Positions 57 to 6,532 of a stretch of DNA of 6,532 nucleotides are shown here, piece after piece. Each line of letters begins with the position of its first letter. Position 1 is the first letter of the stretch. The translations under genes and the position numbers were made by a program. This stretch comes from a virus (lineage: Duplodnaviria; Heunggongvirae; Uroviricota; Caudoviricetes), in IMG/VR virus record IMGVR_UViG_2660238548_000019, one strand, 5' to 3'. The notes below the pieces were generated by a model. It was not told the DNA's origin. It saw only the letters and a list, made by a program, of their open reading frames with translations, and did not search any database.

Positions 57-224
57 TCAAGCATTATGCAGGCTGTTTCTTTTTATCACCGGCCACAGCA
101 ATACCACAATGCCGCAGACCAGCACCCCATCCGCCAGCACCGACATGATTCTGGTGGTGAAATCCACCATCACCACCAGAAACAGCAGGAGTGCAGCCAC
201 AGCCAGGCGCAGTTTTACCGTCAC
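57..224 (-). CDS. hypothetical small hydrophobic protein (55 aa), translationally coupled to the upstream TerB-like gene
   Basis: Not in the ORF track (below its size cutoff). GTG start at 224-222 overlaps the TerB-like stop (GTGA). GGAGA lies 7 nt upstream. Translation MTVKLRLAVAALLLFLVVMVDFTTRIMSVLADGVLVCGIVVLLWPVIKRNSLHNA has two hydrophobic stretches. TGA at 59-57. It shares this region with track ORF 64..351 in another frame; neither is proven. Confidence 0.3.
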   Translation of the reverse strand: MTVKLRLAVAALLLFLVVMVDFTTRIMSVLADGVLVCGIVVLLWPVIKRNSLHNA

Positions 225-652
225 AGGTGATTCTCCAGACGAAGACCCAGAACACCGGCAATCTCTTCCAGCACCTTGCGCTCTTCCGGCTCAATTTCGC
301 CGTCTGCCTCCGCAATGGCCACCGCCACATCCAGCACATCTTCCGCTTCACGCGTATCGTGTTTCACATCCTCAATCTCGCGTAACGCGGCACGACGACC
401 AATTTTAAAATTGGTATCCAGCTGACCGATAATGGTTGCGCTAATCGCATTAATTTCCGAGGTAAACGCAGACAACGCAGGCTGATTACGTAAGACCTGT
501 TCGATCTTCGCTTTCTCGGATGCCTCGCATTCACCATCTGCATAGGCCACCAGGTATGCAGCGTTAATCACCGCCTGTGCCAGATCGCGTTTCTCAAACT
601 TTTTAATTTCCGCTGCCGCTCTGCGGGTTTTCTTTTTGAAGATTCCAAACAT
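221..652 (-). CDS. TerB-like (tellurite-resistance TerB domain family) protein, 143 aa
   Basis: Track ORF 221..724; I place the start at the internal ATG 652-650 (MFGIFKKK...) because AAGGA sits about 7 nt upstream. Helical acidic sequence with ...AYADGECEASEKAKIEQ... and ...IAEADGEIEPEERKVLEEIAGVLGL, which matches my recollection of TerB-domain proteins. Confidence 0.65.
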   Translation of the reverse strand: MFGIFKKKTRRAAAEIKKFEKRDLAQAVINAAYLVAYADGECEASEKAKIEQVLRNQPALSAFTSEINAISATIIGQLDTNFKIGRRAALREIEDVKHDTREAEDVLDVAVAIAEADGEIEPEERKVLEEIAGVLGLRLENHL

Positions 653-784
653 CGTGACGTTCCTTTGGGTGGGTGAGCCAACGCCCGGGAGCGATCTGCC
701 CACAGAGAAAGTCACACTGACCACTCCGTAAGCTCACCCCCGAAAGGCTCTGTGGTTGATATGCGCCGGGCGTGGCGCAGATAC

Positions 785-821: not shown

Positions 822-898
822 TGGCGCGTTGTAGTGGAGTCTAACCACTGACCGATTGCTTAGAAGGCAATTGCTCTGTCCGGCTGAGCTAACAACAC
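822..898 (-). tRNA. tRNA-Arg, anticodon UCU (reads AGA)
   Basis: Hand-folded cloverleaf on the minus strand: 7-bp acceptor stem (one U-G), D stem GCTC/GAGC, anticodon stem ATTGC/GCAAT with loop CTTCTAA, T stem AGTGG/CCACT, discriminator G and encoded CCA. The T-loop TTAGACT is atypical. Confidence 0.75.
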
Positions 899-911
899 AG
901 TGTGCAGATAA

Positions 912-988
912 TGGACCGCCATCGAGGACTCGAACCCCGCGCAACCAGCTTCGAAGGCTGACGCTCTATCCCGATGAGCTAATGGCGG
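912..988 (-). tRNA. tRNA-Arg, anticodon UCG (reads CGA)
   Basis: Hand-folded cloverleaf: acceptor CCGCCAT/ATGGCGG, D stem GCTC/GAGC, anticodon loop CTTCGAA, T arm CGGGG-TTCGAGT-CCTCG, encoded CCA. Confidence 0.75.
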
Positions 989-995
989 TATGTGA

Positions 996-1071
996 TGGTG
1001 GCCCTTGCTGGATTTGAACCAGCGACCTGGCGATTATGAGTCGCTCGCTCTCACCACTGAGCTAAAGGGCC
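996..1071 (-). tRNA. tRNA with anticodon CAU, most likely tRNA-Ile2 (lysidine type, reads AUA); elongator Met not excluded
   Basis: Reverse complement GGCCCTTTAGCTCAGTGGTGAGAGCGAGCGACTCATAATCGCCAGGTCGCTGGTTCAAATCCAGCAAGGGCCACCA folds as a cloverleaf and closely resembles E. coli tRNA-Ile2 as I recall it. Together with the two Arg tRNAs it matches the ileZ-argN-argO trio of lambdoid and Stx-type phages. Confidence 0.85.
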
Positions 1072-1526: not shown

Positions 1527-2621
1527 TTAACTGACACCAGAATCATCATAACCGCGACTTGTTATAGCTTGCCTGTATGCGTTCATTTTGCGTTCTGCGT
1601 ACTGGACAACATCTTTAATGACAAGCTTATGAACAACTGAAATAAGGTCATTTATATAACAAAAGTCAGGTGACTTATTTTTCACTGGCAACCAAATAAC
1701 ATCGTTCTTAATTTTTCTATTACTAACACTATCCCCCCATGAATATTTATGTGAAATAGACCTATAAATACATGAAATAATGCCCAAATAAGCAAACTTT
1801 GTCCTTCCATCCTCATTGTTAACATAGAGTCGCAAATTATGACTGTCGTTTGAAAAAAAGTCTCGCTCCTGATAAGTTACAACGAATGTCTTACCACCAA
1901 TAAAAATACAGTTCCCTTTTTCCAAGAGTGAGTCATCATAGGCGATATAAGAACTAACAGAGTTATTATCACGGCTAGCACAAAGATAAGGAACATCCCC
2001 ACTATTTTCTATGATGTCTCTAGACAATATGTTTCCTGTATTGCACACTGAGAATAACTCAGTAACAGGAAAGCCTGAAAATTCAATATTTTTAAAATGC
2101 TCCAGGATAAGATAATCTTTTTCCGTTAGTTGGTAATCACTCAGCCCAGCAGCTATCAGGTATGCTTCCAGCTCTTCTATATGGGCCGCTTCCAGCTCTT
2201 CTATATAATTATCCATAAAAAACCAGTCAATTTCATTATTTTTCACTGGTAATGAGATGAAATATTCTCCATCTCTGAGTTTGGAACTCGATAACTGTTG
2301 ACCATAATTAAAACGCCCCTTTAAAGCTTTATTAATCATACTGGCAACATACAGTCCGCGCTTTGCATTAAAGTCGGACTTACTTGATTTTAATGTAAGA
2401 ACATGCACCTTCATTTCTACGCTGGCACAATAAGGATGATAAAAAGCATCTCCAAAAAAATTAACGCTTATAAAATTTTCATAATGCCTTGCATCATCCA
2501 TAAACTCGGTATCAAACTCTCCGATGATACCGTTTTGATCGCTCTTTGCTGAAACACGTTTGATTTTGCCTGGTTTTAATCTTCCTGAGGAGATAAGCGA
2601 GCCTGTGCTCACATAGAACAA
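1527..2621 (-). CDS. specificity subunit with two target-recognition domains (HsdS-like; comparable to BcgI B subunit)
   Basis: Track ORF starts at TTG 2621 with AGGA 8 nt upstream. The protein has an internal duplication typical of two-TRD specificity subunits: TRD starts VEWGEFRIGDLFYVSTGSLI versus IEFSGFPVTELFSVCNTGNIL, and TRD ends SKLRDGEYFISLPVKNNEIDWFF versus SNRKIKNDVIWLPVKNKSPDFCY. The first TRD-start motif lies upstream of the TTG in the same frame (open back to TGA 2705-2703) with no ATG/GTG/TTG, so the true N-terminus is unresolved. Confidence 0.6.
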   Translation of the reverse strand: MFYVSTGSLISSGRLKPGKIKRVSAKSDQNGIIGEFDTEFMDDARHYENFISVNFFGDAFYHPYCASVEMKVHVLTLKSSKSDFNAKRGLYVASMINKALKGRFNYGQQLSSSKLRDGEYFISLPVKNNEIDWFFMDNYIEELEAAHIEELEAYLIAAGLSDYQLTEKDYLILEHFKNIEFSGFPVTELFSVCNTGNILSRDIIENSGDVPYLCASRDNNSVSSYIAYDDSLLEKGNCIFIGGKTFVVTYQERDFFSNDSHNLRLYVNNEDGRTKFAYLGIISCIYRSISHKYSWGDSVSNRKIKNDVIWLPVKNKSPDFCYINDLISVVHKLVIKDVVQYAERKMNAYRQAITSRGYDDSGVS

Positions 2622-2640: not shown

Positions 2641-2690
2641 CCCCACTCAACGCTTCTTAATTTATCGCTGAGCGGGGAATTTACTTTCCC
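2641..2690 (-). promoter_or_regulatory. candidate programmed -1 ribosomal frameshift cassette (slippery heptamer, spacer, hairpin) at the junction of the two R-M genes
   Basis: In the frame of the large gene the last codons are GCG GGA AAG TAA, giving heptamer G_GGA_AAG (minus 2690-2684, X_XXY_YYZ pattern) directly before the stop. A 6-nt spacer (TAAATT) is followed by a hairpin with 12-bp stem CCCCGCTCAGCG / CGTTGAGTGGGG (two G-U pairs, 13-nt loop; plus 2641-2677). The -1 frame after the slip reads GTA AAT TCC CCG..., which is the specificity-gene frame. Confidence 0.35.
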
Positions 2691-4642
2691 GCAAAATTGT
2701 TTTCACCTTGTTTTTTCAGTAATTGCGAGACCTCCCATGCAAGGTAATCACCTACCGTCTTTTTGAAATCCTCCAGCGTTGGCCTAGCATCTACTGGCCT
2801 GGTCTGATTCCAGTCCTCACCACTATCAGGATCGATTGTTCCCTCAAAATATTCATCCTCCGTAAAGATATTAAGGCAACCTTTCCCGAAGTGAACCAGA
2901 TCCACAACCTCCTGATAACGCTCTTTTGCACGATCGGCATCAACAAGATTGTTTCTTGCCTTTTTGCGATTAGAGCGAGCGTAGCCGTCATTGGAAAAGT
3001 CGATAAACTTAACAGCCTGTTTCGCGTTATGCGGAATTTTTACCTGAAAAACGTAAATGTACGTCTGAACGCTTGATTTACCAATAAACAGATCCGCAGG
3101 CATTTTGATGCTTGCCAGCAAGGTATTTTCCTTGAGTATTTTTTTGTTGTACTCCGTAGCCTTTCCTGTGCCAGCTGAACTCTGGATAATCACTGCAGCA
3201 TAGCCTTTATCCATCATCGACAGCGCCTTCTGCACGAAAATCATGCCGTTACCTTTAGCTGAATACGGAGGATTGAGAATAAATGCGTCCGCAGGGAATT
3301 TTTCTCCTGTTTTCCCAAATCCATACTTGCCGTCAAAATCGGCCAGCGAGTCTTTATTGAGGATATTCGAGCTACCATCCCCCATCAAAATCATATTCAG
3401 GATGGCCAGCATATAAATACTGGATAACACCTCAAGGCCAAGAAGCTGTTCAGCCTTGATTTGCGCTTCCTTAAGTTGTAGTTCGTTCGGTGAGTGAATA
3501 TTTTCTCTGGCGTCAATGAGCATTTCATTCATTGCAGCCACAAGCAATCCCGCAGAACCTGTAGCAAAATCCCACACATAGGAATCTTTGTTTACTCTGG
3601 CGAGTCGTGCCAGCAATGTGGCAACATAAGGTGGTGTCAGAACGACGTCATTGAGCTTGTCCTGCGTAAATCCAAGCCAGCGATACATCTCATTAAACAG
3701 TTTGCCCGTAAAATCGGTGGTCAGTCCAATTTTGTAATACTCCCCAAGATCATCAACAACTTTAACAAACACGCGCTTTAACTGGCTTTCACCGTTGACT
3801 GGTTTGTTAATGTTTTCAGTCCACAGCGTATTTTGCAACGAGCGCAAAATCATTTCTCTTTTTGTTTCAGGAACAGCTTTCAGCCTTAAAAAATTCCTTA
3901 TTTTCCTGAAAATAATATCACCATCACGCAAGTCCTCCTCCGTTGAAGAGGTCAGTTCTTTTTTATCCAGCGGTGCTAACTTTCCCGGAATCCCCAACGT
4001 TGCAATAACGGTAGCCACAACAAGGTAAACACGATCACTTTCACCAAGCCCCTTTTCATTCTGGTAAATATCGTTATTCAGACGGGAAAGTCGCGTGTCT
4101 ATCTCTTCCTCTTTGCTGGCCTTGATTTTTTCCAGTTCTTCGGGAGGAAGATTAAGCAGCTTTATCTTGTTGAGAAATCCATCAACATTTTTATCAGCAA
4201 GGAACGATAAGTCGGTGAATTCACCAACCTTCTGTCCGGCTCCTAAATTATTCTTTGATACGTACCACACGCCGATTTCATGATGCAGTTCGCCTGTACC
4301 ATCATCGCGCCAGCCGGTCATACCAATAGCAATAATATCAGGGTAATTGGTGAACTGAAGAAGTGCGTTGGCATAATGGACTGCGCCATTCACCGCGTAT
4401 CCATTAATATTTTTAAAATTCCATTCTTTTCTGGCATCTTTGTTCTCAATAATACCGTTGCTGCCAAGTCTGATAAGCCTGTCCTTGTAGCCTTTATACT
4501 CGATGAGAACGGGATACTGCTTGCCGTATTTGTCCTTAACAAGGAGTTTTACGTCGGGACGATTACCGCCTGCGCCGCCATTTTTCGAAAAATAAGCGTC
4601 CAGTGCGTTATCGATCTCTCCGTTAAGTGATGCATTCTGCAA
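2681..4642 (-). CDS. restriction-modification polypeptide: N-terminal PD-(D/E)xK nuclease-like region plus gamma-class N6-adenine DNA methyltransferase (Type IIB BcgI-A-like); 5' end probably extends through the heptamer repeat to ATG 4881 after a frame restoration
   Basis: Track ORF of 653 aa starting at TTG 4642. Motifs read in the translation: RPD (aa 28-30) then EYK (aa 48-50), a PD-x17-ExK spacing; VVLTPPYVATLL (motif X) then WDFATGSAG (motif I) then FILNPPYS (motif IV), the gamma-class order. Size and two-gene layout match my recollection of BcgI (A about 637 aa, B about 341 aa). The frame stays open upstream of 4642 through the whole repeat as plausible protein (...TSSKSRKSVKSVEPEITELANSWLKSYRLDYK) with no in-frame start, until a stop at 4888-4886. 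Confidence 0.6.
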   Translation of the reverse strand: MQNASLNGEIDNALDAYFSKNGGAGGNRPDVKLLVKDKYGKQYPVLIEYKGYKDRLIRLGSNGIIENKDARKEWNFKNINGYAVNGAVHYANALLQFTNYPDIIAIGMTGWRDDGTGELHHEIGVWYVSKNNLGAGQKVGEFTDLSFLADKNVDGFLNKIKLLNLPPEELEKIKASKEEEIDTRLSRLNNDIYQNEKGLGESDRVYLVVATVIATLGIPGKLAPLDKKELTSSTEEDLRDGDIIFRKIRNFLRLKAVPETKREMILRSLQNTLWTENINKPVNGESQLKRVFVKVVDDLGEYYKIGLTTDFTGKLFNEMYRWLGFTQDKLNDVVLTPPYVATLLARLARVNKDSYVWDFATGSAGLLVAAMNEMLIDARENIHSPNELQLKEAQIKAEQLLGLEVLSSIYMLAILNMILMGDGSSNILNKDSLADFDGKYGFGKTGEKFPADAFILNPPYSAKGNGMIFVQKALSMMDKGYAAVIIQSSAGTGKATEYNKKILKENTLLASIKMPADLFIGKSSVQTYIYVFQVKIPHNAKQAVKFIDFSNDGYARSNRKKARNNLVDADRAKERYQEVVDLVHFGKGCLNIFTEDEYFEGTIDPDSGEDWNQTRPVDARPTLEDFKKTVGDYLAWEVSQLLKKQGENNFAGK

Positions 4643-4732
4643 CTTGTAATCAAGCCTGTAAGATTTAAGCCATGAGTTCGCCAGTTCGGTAATTTCCGGC
4701 TCAACAGATTTTACAGACTTTCTTGATTTACT

Positions 4733-4872
4733 GCTGGTCGCTGGTCGCTGGTCGCTGGTCGCTGGTCGCTGGTCGCTGGTCGCTGGTCGCTGGTCGCTGG
4801 TCGCTGGTCGCTGGTCGCTGGTCGCTGGTCGCTGGTCGCTGGTCGCTGGTCGCTGGTCGCTGGTCGCTGGTC
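4733..4872. repeat. perfect tandem heptanucleotide repeat (GCTGGTC)x20 (140 bp); GACCAGC on the coding strand
   Basis: Counted directly: 20 uninterrupted 7-bp units from 4733 to 4872. Because 7 is not a multiple of 3, all three frames translate the same heptad (TSDQRPA) with no stop codons. Confidence 0.97.
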
Positions 4873-5055
4873 TGGCAGCATAAAATCATCCTTTTATGAA
4901 AATCAACGTTTTTTGAGCACTCGCACACAAAAAATTACCGCATTGGTTGCAACGACAACCTTCATTTTGCGGAGCATATGACAAATAAAGTACGGGTGCG
5001 TTGAGGATGCCAGACACATCAGAGGTGGCGGGAGATTACTCCCCTGCCTGGTCTC

Positions 5056-5211
5056 TTACTTCTCAGATTCGTAGTCTACGAAGACAGCGACCTCCGTCTG
5101 GCCGGTTCGGATTCGTACCTCGCAGAAGTCTTTCCTCGTTACCAGTGCTATCACTACGACGGTAATACAGATGACGATCAGGGCGATTAACATCGCCTTT
5201 TGCTGCTTCAT
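5056..5211 (-). CDS. hok: Hok/Gef-family type I toxin (51 aa)
   Basis: Not in the ORF track. ATG 5211-5209, TAA 5058-5056. Translation MKQQKAMLIALIVICITVVVIALVTRKDFCEVRIRTGQTEVAVFVDYESEK is a classic Hok/Gef/RelF-like sequence. The leader just upstream reads AGGCAAGGAGAAGTAGGCTATG, like the hok leader of plasmid R1 as I recall it. Confidence 0.85.
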   Translation of the reverse strand: MKQQKAMLIALIVICITVVVIALVTRKDFCEVRIRTGQTEVAVFVDYESEK

Positions 5212-5214
5212 AGC

Positions 5215-5268
5215 CTACTTCTCCTTGCCTTTCGGCACGTAAGAGGCTAACCTAAGTTTGTAAGTCAT
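5215..5268 (-). CDS. mok-like leader ORF (17 aa) ending 3 nt before the hok start
   Basis: ATG 5268-5266 to TAG 5217-5215, translation MTYKLRLASLRAEGKEK. Its position matches the mok/hok coupling arrangement, but it is much shorter than R1 mok. Confidence 0.35.
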   Translation of the reverse strand: MTYKLRLASYVPKGKEK

Positions 5269-5386
5269 AGATTTGGCCTCAGATTAATGTTAAGCGTCCT
5301 GCAAGACGCGTAATGTTAACTGGGGCTTTTCTCTGTCTGCCTTACGGCTGCATGCCCGAGGCAGACAGCCTCAAGCACCCGCAGCT

Positions 5387-5414
5387 ATTCTACAGTAAAA
5401 ACTCGCGCTTTCAA
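5387..5414 (-). promoter_or_regulatory. sigma70-type promoter, most likely for the hok mRNA; -35 overlaps the Q stop codon
   Basis: Minus strand: -35 TTGAAA (5414-5409), 16-nt spacer, -10 TAGAAT (5392-5387), putative start near 5380 at GGGTGCTTGAGGCTGTCTGCCTC, which resembles the 5' end of R1 hok mRNA. A 9-bp stem hairpin (5333-5368) follows. Confidence 0.45.
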
Positions 5415-5836
5415 TTTCCCGCACGTCCGGCAAACTGACTGGCCTGTGATCCTGATGGTTCACGCTCAACGTACCTGTCCATTTCCAGCTTTACTCCCTG
5501 CATGATCAACATCCCCTCAATAACACCTTCTGCTTTTTGCAGTACCCGCCCGGCCCAGCAATCAGAGCGCCCATGCTTACGGCCCAGTGACATAAGCGTC
5601 ATCCCGAACACATAATAATCATACAGAAAATCATGCAAATCGCTGTTATTGACGTTCAGTTGCGCCATGCAATTGCTGATAATCAGCGCATCGTCATCGG
5701 TACACTGAGGCCGTGATTTAACCTTTGACGGGATCAGCCCCTTAAATCCGGCGGCAATGGGCGACCAGCTCACATCCTCATGATTATTGGCCACCCATGC
5801 GCCCCAGCGTTCAAGCACCTGCTGAATATCACGCAT
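5411..5836 (-). CDS. Q: late-gene antiterminator Q (phage 82/21-type, QuuD-like)
   Basis: Track ORF 5411..5920; I start it at the internal ATG 5836-5834 ([24 protein letters not shown]...), which overlaps the ninH stop in an ATGCGTGA arrangement. The N-terminal sequence matches my recollection of DLP12 QuuD-type Q proteins. Confidence 0.8.
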
Positions 5837-6029
5837 CAGAGTCTTTCCCCTTATCCCATCCACGGTGAACCATAAGGACACCGTTGACGACGGCGTGCCG
5901 TTTGCCTTCTTTATCGCCAATATATTTTCTGACCGTGTTGCGACTACAGTTCAGTATTCTGGCTACCTCGGTCTGATTTTCATATGCCTCAACGAGCATG
6001 TCAGGAATGGTTTTTACTGTGAACGTCAT
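5829..6029 (-). CDS. ninH: NinH
   Basis: 66 aa, [42 protein letters not shown]..., close to lambda NinH as I recall it. Its start overlaps the ninG stop (ATGA). Confidence 0.8.
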
Positions 6030-6406
6030 GCGGCCTCACTTCTGCTGTTTCGCAGGTCTTTAAGTTTCTGCTGATACTTCGCCTTGATGGCCCTGCACTC
6101 TTCGACAGTCCAGCGATGGCGGTTATGGTTTGATTCGATTTCGTCTACTGCTTCCTGCCCGATGCGGCTAATCAGTTCGACGCGATACGGAACGAGATTT
6201 CCGCTTTTGTGCTGGTTGCACACCACGCATTGCTTGTGAATATTGCGTTCATCAAATCGGAGTTGAGGTGCCGCAGCAGTTGTCCGGTAATGTCCGGCAT
6301 CCCACTGAGCAGACGTGAGCGTTCCGCACGAGATACATGGTAAGTCGCGGTCTCTTTCTCTGACGAAGGCGTTTACGGCTTGTTGGGCTTGTTTAATCCA
6401 GTAACT
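6026..6406 (-). pseudogene. ninG: ninG (rap) 5'-truncated by an IS insertion; only the C-terminal part remains
   Basis: From [43 protein letters not shown]... to the end matches the C-terminal part of lambda NinG as I recall it. The first 16 residues of the track ORF ([16 protein letters not shown]) are read out of the IS end and are not NinG. Confidence 0.75.
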
Positions 6407-6532
6407 GAGGTAGCCTGAGTTTAACGGACACTCCTTCCTGAAATAGAATGGCATCAGAAGGAGCTAATAATGAGCAGAAAAACCCAACGTTACTCTAAAG
6501 AGTTCAAAGCCGAAGCTGTCAGAACGGTTCTT
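6406..6532 (+). mobile_element. left end of an IS3-family insertion sequence (continues beyond the window)
   Basis: Sequence from about 6406 (TGAGGTAGCCTGAGTTTAACGGACAC...) runs into an OrfA start with GAAGGAG RBS. The boundary is placed where NinG homology stops; the exact end is uncertain by a few bases. It may be IS600-like, but that name is from memory only. Confidence 0.6.
6470..6532 (+). CDS. IS3-family transposase OrfA, N-terminal 21 codons (partial)
   Basis: ATG 6470 preceded by AGGAG; translation MSRKTQRYSKEFKAEAVRTVL is a typical start of an IS3-family OrfA helix-turn-helix protein. Confidence 0.7.
   Translation, partial: MSRKTQRYSKEFKAEAVRTVL

Follow-up and report, generated by a model that had tools for sequence, protein, structure and literature searches.

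The stretch of DNA analysed here (the window, 6,532 nt; IMG/VR virus record IMGVR_UViG_2660238548_000019, Caudoviricetes) carries a tandem array of 20 copies of the heptanucleotide GACCAGC within the 5' end of a gene for a restriction-modification (R-M) enzyme. All coordinates refer to the minus strand, which is the coding strand, unless noted otherwise. The genes are all on this strand, in the order ninG, antiterminator Q, sok/mok-hok, the array with the enzyme gene (4881-2681), a specificity gene, tRNA genes and a TerB-family gene. The array (4733..4872) is a perfect repeat with a unit that is not divisible by three, and is located between the start codons and the enzyme domains, the conserved N-terminus of the enzyme following from position 4732. 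The array, which lies three to four codons inside the coding sequence of a prophage-borne, BcgI-like R-M gene, likely acts as a slipped-strand contingency switch.

Tandem Repeats Finder identified a single array in the window, with a period of 7, 20.0 copies, 100% matches and a score of 280 (plus-strand unit GCTGGTC), and a three-unit probe gave 18 matches in the window compared to 0.00 expected from 200 dinucleotide-preserving shuffles. A first-pass annotation, made from the sequence alone, had described the same 20 perfect units; the range that it gave, 4733-4889, also covers both upstream ATG codons. The unit is free of stop codons in all six frames, and on the coding strand the array is translated as the cyclic heptapeptide QRPATSD in every frame. 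Two ATG codons are found in the bases immediately 5' of the array (...CATAAAAGGATGATTTTATGCTGCCA). The one closer to the array, ATG4881 (4879..4881, reading MLPD...), is present in every related locus examined, is kept even in a third allele at 88-93% identity, and is likely the main start. A Shine-Dalgarno-like sequence, AAAGGA (4889..4894), which presumably serves this start, has its GG 8 nt 5' of ATG4881. The other, ATG4889 (4887..4889, reading MILCCQTSD...), lies in a different frame and is without a properly spaced Shine-Dalgarno sequence, the AAAGGA overlapping it by one base; in two related loci (L021 and L046) it is replaced by ATA.

With 20 copies, the frame of ATG4881 encodes MLPD(QRPATSD)n, a 56-residue product ending at the TAA at 4713-4711, and the frame of ATG4889 encodes 53 residues ending at the TAA at 4730-4728; the two stops span 4711..4730. 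The enzyme is read in the third frame, in which a TGA at 4888-4886 is followed by an open frame from 4885 across the array to the stop at 2681-2683, and in which the sole ATG, GTG or TTG ahead of the enzyme body is TTG4642. The array was edited in silico to between 15 and 25 copies. Full enzyme is reached via ATG4881 at 18, 21 and 24 copies, via ATG4889 at 19, 22 and 25 copies, and via neither at 17, 20 and 23 copies. The frame rule is hence 3n for fusion to ATG4881, 3n+1 for fusion to ATG4889, and 3n+2, the class of the window, for no fusion. The first-pass annotation had proposed the same geometry, with an AAAGG Shine-Dalgarno sequence 8 nt upstream of ATG4881, exits of both ATGs into frames that stop, an enzyme frame open through the repeat as the third frame, and copy numbers of 18 or 21 and 19 or 22 for the two fusions; each of these was reproduced, the frame arithmetic exactly. 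Its reading of the window as OFF is also correct for the sequence as given, and as assembled the window is predicted to be OFF, a state that depends on one assembled count.

The position at which the conserved protein begins was established by comparison with homologues that lack the repeat. A search of 5.8 billion proteins retrieved repeat-free, full-length homologues of approximately 72% identity from Neisseria flavescens, Providencia alcalifaciens and a Methylophilaceae metagenome-assembled genome (MAG), and one further protein. Their N-termini (Neisseria flavescens, MTQASKKSNKSIEPNIADLANGWLKSY... / MTQASKKSNKSIEPNIADLANGWLKSYKLDYRLEQ...; Providencia, MARLQSVEPNIADLANGW... / MARLQSVEPNIADLANGWLKSY...; the Methylophilaceae MAG, MAQSIEPNIADLANGW...; the unnamed protein, MNSQQPTAKSQKAVKSVEPDVADLANGW...) begin 3-13 residues ahead of a conserved SVEP motif, near the position of the array end in the window, where the array is followed by SKSRKSVKSVEPEITELANSWLKSYRLDYKLQ.... 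Therefore, the conserved protein begins at about the array end. In Neisseria, the gene starts at an ordinary ATG, lacks a simple sequence repeat and is flanked by housekeeping genes. A repeat-free homologue, P0029, starts MNSQQPTAKSQKAVKSVEPD, and its QQPTAKS resembles the QRPATS(D) unit (window 4733-4760), a resemblance which hints that the array arose by amplification of a native N-terminal segment.

Thirty N-terminal codons (SKSRKSVKSVEPEITELANSWLKSYRLDYK; 4643..4732) are conserved directly after the array, as indicated by the homologue N-termini, by invariant alignment columns, by the ratio of nonsynonymous to synonymous substitution (dN/dS) and by a PADLOC profile that aligns from residue 10. 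These codons can be translated solely from a start 5' of the array. In an alignment of 20 sequences, numbered from the array end, N19, W21, L22, L27, Y29 and L31 are invariant, and L31 corresponds to the codon of TTG4642; in a sister E. coli allele (allele B) this codon is CTG. With TTG4642 encoding an internal leucine that never varies, and with CTG in its place in allele B, the true start must be located upstream of the array. Initiation at TTG4642, which the first-pass annotation had listed among the observations that would speak against its interpretation, is thus contradicted by the homologue N-termini, the invariant leucine and the CTG codon alike. On this comparative evidence TTG4642 is not the natural start, and the two ATGs upstream of the array are the only candidate starts.

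Database annotation differs between alleles. In most genomes RefSeq, through the Prokaryotic Genome Annotation Pipeline (PGAP), starts the enzyme at TTG4642 (WP_001178557.1, 653 residues), and in allele B it falls back to a GTG call of 569 residues, which removes the PD...EYK nuclease motif. In strain 04-00955, in which allele B has its array in frame, RefSeq itself calls a 739-residue protein through the array, and database proteins beginning MLPDQRPATSD... or MILCCQTSDQRPATSD... also exist.

The translation that follows the array comprises 683 residues and matches the PADLOC profile REase_MTase_IIG across residues 10-675 (E=3.4e-232). Pfam assigns an N6_Mtase domain (E=5e-21) and a weak VRR_NUC match at the N-terminus, and the motifs RPD...IEYK, of the PD-(D/E)XK type, and LNPPYS are visible. 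The fused nuclease-methyltransferase body (2681..4642; PD...EYK motif, N6_Mtase domain and NPPY) combines in one polypeptide an N-terminal PD-(D/E)XK nuclease and a gamma-type N6-adenine methyltransferase (NPPY). It is followed by a gene for a 364-residue specificity subunit (1527..2621), with Methylase_S in two stretches (Pfam) and a match to PADLOC Specificity_II. Gene callers report differing lengths for this gene in some genomes; a split or variable specificity gene was considered and rejected, the differences reflecting start-codon choice only, and the frame is intact in all 11 of the loci compared.

The RefSeq name, which places the enzyme in the HsdM family of Type I systems, was not retained. 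The match to the NCBIfam hsdM equivalog TIGR00497 is only 36 bits, with a cutoff of 242.75, the nuclease is fused, and neither the window nor the Neisseria locus has an HsdR-like open reading frame (ORF); with a score so far below the cutoff and no hsdR, 'HsdM family' is a superfamily label only. The depositors of the phage record PhiR12_3 annotated the enzyme as BcgI alpha chain-like. Judged by its domains and neighbour, the gene encodes a BcgI-like (Type IIB-organised) fused nuclease-methyltransferase with an adjacent type II specificity subunit. A sequence search of the PDB gave no match, and an AlphaFold2 model built from the 20-sequence alignment was poor (mean pLDDT 58, pTM 0.39), such that its N-terminal helix (residues 14-24) was given no weight.

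The enzyme gene is under purifying selection, which does not fit a pseudogene. Values of dN/dS are 0.05-0.20 for the whole gene, with alleles compared as far as Salmonella, and 0.10-0.30 for the first 31 codons after the array, and the 683-codon frame is unbroken in every locus examined.

Array length, on the other hand, is highly variable. The locus is present in 29 complete E. coli genomes; the comparison took in 21 of these, 10 more loci found via an exact-protein index, one phage record and 24 loci on viral contigs. In approximately 45 related E. coli loci, with flanks that are nearly the same, the array comprises between 9 and 120 copies, so that copy number is not invariant among homologous loci, the comparison that the first-pass annotation had suggested. 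Uninterrupted tracts contain 9, 13, 16, 19, 20 (the window), 23, 30, 31, 34, 38, 47, 56, 58, 64, 65, 69, 72, 76, 79, 83, 89, 99 and 120 copies. When loci are grouped by the 400 bp on each side of the array (800 bp), one flank haplotype comprises ten genomes with nine lengths (31-83), a second has 65, 83, 83, ~93 and 99 copies, a third has 19, 23 and 30 copies, and that of the window has 20 and 89 copies. The locus closest overall to the window (L029) has 38 copies instead of 20. The two differ by 10 bases in the 1678 bp upstream of the array and by a single base in the 4872 bp comprising the array and what follows it. These comparisons indicate that array length changes far faster than point substitutions accumulate. 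All natural variants conform to the predicted frame rule; among 30 loci, 13 are OFF, 10 are ON through ATG4889 and 7 are ON through ATG4881. Genomes with a common specificity gene include Symbioflor G8 (99 copies, ON through ATG4881) and G6/7 (83 copies, OFF), as well as 2013C-3250 (64 copies, ON through ATG4889) and 7-32 9A (83 copies, OFF). The slipped-strand contingency locus put forward in the first-pass annotation is therefore supported by all of the sequence-level tests available (starts, variation, frame rule and selection).

Beyond E. coli, a Salmonella contig with an orthologue begins ...ACCAGC, inside a GACCAGC unit directly 5' of the orthologue. One Salmonella orthologue (L178, AAIXRA010000034, 1-4541; 85% identity) lies beside conjugation genes of the type found in integrative and conjugative elements (RAQPRD, DUF3262, DUF2976 and DUF3487) and not beside phage genes. 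Both Salmonella contigs (L178 and L022) start at the array position, which suggests that the repeat breaks Salmonella assemblies too; in the wider collection, many short-read and viral contigs end inside the array.

Several observations weigh against a switch of this kind, or against the state assigned to individual loci. The near-even split of frame states is also expected under neutral copy-number drift. A count of 83 is shared by O111:H8 7-32 9A, UCPROB-002, Symbioflor G6/7 and phage PhiR12_3 of ECOR13 (L007, L010, L013 and L177), records that come from four hosts in different countries and whose flanks are only 0-1 single-nucleotide polymorphism apart. Such recurrence would not be expected of a hypervariable tract, and may reflect recent spread of the phage. 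The long tracts of five loci (L012, L015, L016, L017 and L026) contain single-base deletions (e.g. GACAGC or GACCGC) that alter the frame. These may be long-read consensus errors or real interruptions, and since they may be errors, the ON and OFF calls of long arrays are uncertain. The 20 units (140 bp) of the window are a single assembled count and among the lowest of its own allele family (13-99). Finally, a promoter scan found no convincing sigma-70-like site between hok and the ATGs; the sole site, TTGAAA-16-TAGAAT at the end of Q (5414-5387), is a consensus match only. A within-strain comparison was dropped: UCPROB-001 and UCPROB-002 had been taken as resequenced Symbioflor G8 and G6/7, but their hok proteins differ.

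The equal abundance of the three frame classes would suit an array that is a neutral variable-number tandem repeat in an untranslated leader, with the enzyme made from TTG4642 and copy number without effect on expression, and PGAP does place the start of WP_001178557.1 at TTG4642 in most genomes. This explanation is nevertheless very improbable, given that the codon is an internal leucine, that the 30 codons 5' of it are conserved in Neisseria, Providencia and the Methylophilaceae MAG at a dN/dS of 0.1-0.3, and that the PADLOC profile already aligns from residue 10. Moreover, both out-of-frame reads stop 69-86 nt before TTG4642, which makes translational coupling to this codon unlikely. Decay offers another account of the out-of-frame loci (~40%), in which a pseudogene has been invaded by a runaway microsatellite; with the 683-codon frame unbroken everywhere examined, dN/dS at 0.05-0.20 and the specificity gene intact in 11 of 11 loci, this is most improbable. 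Many genomes in RefSeq carry a plus-strand ORF over the array, named 'YXWGXW repeat-containing protein', and its being a real gene can scarcely be credited: its length simply tracks copy number, any such array is open in six frames, the 58-residue version in the window (4723-4899) has no NCBIfam match, and it is antisense to the conserved frame under inconsistent names (hypothetical, YXWGXW and, in PhiR12_3, EmrB/QacA transporter).

Two further explanations accept that the array is translated. The variable (QRPATSD)n tail might itself be functional, for example as a length-tuned disordered linker, with frameshifts as a by-product. Arrays of up to 120 units (280 residues) exceed what on/off switching needs, and the activity of BcgI is described as dependent on self-association of its A subunit (PMC3592470), perhaps influenced by a tail beside the nuclease domain. 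However, a 7-nt unit makes two thirds of single-unit changes frame-breaking, a poor design for length tuning, homologues work without a tail, and the peptide shows no family match or conservation beyond that of the DNA repeat, leaving a functional tail improbable. The remaining explanation, that the switch is real but the 20 copies of the window are a collapsed or mis-bridged assembly, so that OFF says nothing on the source strain, is unlikely on balance but a genuine possibility. Array lengths of 31-99 copies are found in near-identical long-read loci, and of 38 and 89 in the pair of genomes nearest to the window; the 653-residue protein is indexed mostly on contigs of 2-10 kb, and many viral contigs end in the array. 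Additionally, counts of 9 and 19 recur in short-read contigs, and these are the lengths that a collapsed assembly with k=63 or k=127 would be expected to have. The window's 140 bp, however, is not the 133 bp of a k=127 collapse and can be spanned by reads of 250-300 nt, and short arrays are genuine in complete genomes (13, 16, 19, 23 and 30 copies).

The cassette is found 3' of Q and hok in lambdoid prophages. Upstream are ninG (6026..6454) and antiterminator Q (5411..5920, Pfam). A complete hok/sok/mok type I toxin-antitoxin module is located between Q and the array, consisting of the hok toxin gene (5056..5211, NCBIfam Hok family match) and the sok/mok RNA region (5206..5380, Rfam RF01794, 118 bits). 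Downstream, 3' of the specificity gene, are genes for tRNA-Met(CAT), tRNA-Arg(TCG) and tRNA-Arg(TCT) (1071..822), a trio which we take to resemble the tRNA trio 5' of stx in Shiga toxin (Stx) phages, and a TerB-family gene (221..724). In related prophages without the hok-enzyme-specificity insert (H31-H36), Q is followed directly by the TerB region; hok/sok/mok and the R-M cassette seem to have entered as one insert. In two genomes of Shiga toxin-producing E. coli (STEC), CP027328 (L025, 5022-7870) and CP027323 (L030, 5022-7870), stxA (RIP domain) and stxB (SLT_beta) are the next called genes, approximately 0.5 kb after the cassette, and the array sits between Q and the toxin genes of a Stx prophage. 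The inducible-phage record PhiR12_3 (ECOR13) carries the locus with 83 copies.

The heptanucleotide is also found elsewhere. Three metagenomic viral contigs (L033, 8316-8400; L038, 5154-5217; L044, 194-264) contain a different, apparently intergenic array, in which ATTCTTTTTATGTGTGGGCGAAGC precedes (GACCAGC)9-12 and then (ACCAGC)n; an R-M gene is absent from its vicinity. Among the matches listed in a GTDB scan, which is not informative on Enterobacteriaceae, arrays of at least five units are dispersed in the Planctomycetota MAG JALHRW01 (at least 65 loci) and in Marichromatium bheemlicum (at least 7 loci), unrelated to the R-M locus.

If the array is a contingency switch, replication slippage or unequal recombination would shift its copy number at high frequency, and loops of 7 nt would be expected to evade MutS-dependent repair in E. 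coli. Each unit gained or lost would move the frame by one position, and a lysogen population would become a mixture of three frame states. At 3n copies the enzyme would be made from ATG4881, probably strongly, with its well-spaced Shine-Dalgarno sequence. At 3n+1 copies it would be made from ATG4889, probably weakly, because this start abuts the Shine-Dalgarno sequence and has no spaced one of its own. At 3n+2 copies the enzyme would be absent and only a QRPATSD peptide of 50-200 residues would be made. Since nuclease and methyltransferase are parts of a single polypeptide, the two activities would switch together. The ON forms would carry an N-terminal (QRPATSD)n tail of approximately 20-280 residues, and steps of three units would alter tail length alone.

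The mechanism as such is not new, because repeat-driven R-M switching is known from Type III mod genes, Type I systems and Cj0031. Type III mod repeats consist of 4-5-nt units, usually in fewer than about 40 copies; the repeat of Campylobacter jejuni cj0031c is reportedly a poly-G tract in a chromosomal gene without a separate specificity subunit; and Haemophilus influenzae lic1A/lic2A-type loci, which act in lipopolysaccharide biosynthesis, have a CAAT tetranucleotide with ATGs in two frames 5' of the repeat, so that product is obtained in two frames out of three, potentially at a strong and a weak level. The two-frame ATGs of the present locus are similar to the latter; natural variants include fusions of the enzyme to either ATG, and from Shine-Dalgarno spacing alone these two starts are predicted to differ in strength. 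As described by Anjum et al. (2016, PMC4889913), cj0031c is a phase-variable Type IIG gene in which ON/OFF switching changed methylation and phage restriction. Like the present gene, it is described as encoding nuclease and methyltransferase in one polypeptide and as undergoing frameshifts in an intragenic simple sequence repeat; the present locus, in contrast, has a 7-nt unit in 9-120 copies after the start codon, a BcgI-like A and S organisation, and a location on lambdoid prophages. In the Type III mod genes of Haemophilus, Neisseria and Moraxella (PMC5909438), too, a repeat with many copies of a unit other than a triplet lies early in the ORF and is translated, in the open frame, into a repetitive peptide, and there a DNA methyltransferase is turned ON and OFF at random. 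These genes, however, belong to Type III enzymes, of which only Mod is directly switched, and to host-adapted mucosal pathogens rather than to phages of Enterobacteriaceae.

Type I hsdM and hsdS repeat switching is also known (PMC7383803, PMC2651432). The (GACGA)n repeat of H. influenzae hsdM (PMC2651432) is intragenic, with a unit that is not a multiple of three, and truncates an R-M methyltransferase gene, but it has 1-4 units and belongs to a Type I system, in which HsdR is a separate protein, and the present protein is far below the hsdM cutoff (36 against 242.75 bits). The hmw1A and hmw2A genes of H. influenzae (PMC2651432) also have a 7-nt unit, in 13-38 copies that vary among strains; their repeat lies in the promoter and grades transcription, whereas the present array is in the coding sequence and would act on the reading frame. 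BcgI itself, a Type IIB enzyme (Smith et al. 2013, PMC3592470), is described as consisting of an A polypeptide, which holds a single nuclease and a single methyltransferase centre, and a B polypeptide for DNA recognition. The A plus specificity gene organisation is shared, the present enzyme being known from its sequence, with cutting on both sides of the site described for BcgI. Phase variation is not known for BcgI, and its N-terminus carries no repeat.

A literature search found no description of this locus. Nor did it find a repeat-driven R-M switch in E. coli or Salmonella, on a prophage of the lambdoid or Stx kind or on a BcgI-type enzyme, or one with a heptanucleotide unit reaching 120 copies. 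The locus may possibly correspond to a marker of the Japanese EHEC MLVA set (EHC/EH111 series), for which a published description lists no unit sequences. The textbook modes of phase variation in E. coli are DNA inversion (fim) and Dam methylation (pap and Ag43). Escherichia is not mentioned in the main text of a survey of simple sequence repeats in Type I systems (PMC7383803), and repeat-driven switching of an E. coli R-M system does not appear in two recent reviews as far as searches by term show. The mechanism is thus of a known kind, and the host, the carrier and the array size appear to be new.

The locus has practical interest because RefSeq misannotates it, placing the enzyme start too far downstream (the TTG and GTG calls of 653 and 569 residues) and adding a spurious antisense 'YXWGXW' gene. 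It is also a very polymorphic, ready-made marker that breaks short-read assemblies. In Stx phages it occupies the late-operon 'moron' position, adjoining the toxin genes. A broader role is rather doubtful but can be stated: the temperate lambdoid phages that infect E. coli, Stx-converting phages among them, may carry a bet-hedging R-M system. Strong-ON, weak-ON and OFF cells would then coexist in a shifting lysogen population, making superinfection immunity, the methylation state of phage particles and possibly the expression of host genes more diverse, the last as a phage-borne phasevarion of enteropathogenic E. coli (EPEC) or STEC. In an unmethylated cell, a change from OFF to ON of a nuclease that cuts on both sides of its site could cause self-restriction, the SOS response and, in a subpopulation, spontaneous induction of the prophage and of Stx. 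The locus is a candidate cause of differences between strains and clones of EPEC, STEC and commensal E. coli in methylome, phage susceptibility and DNA uptake.

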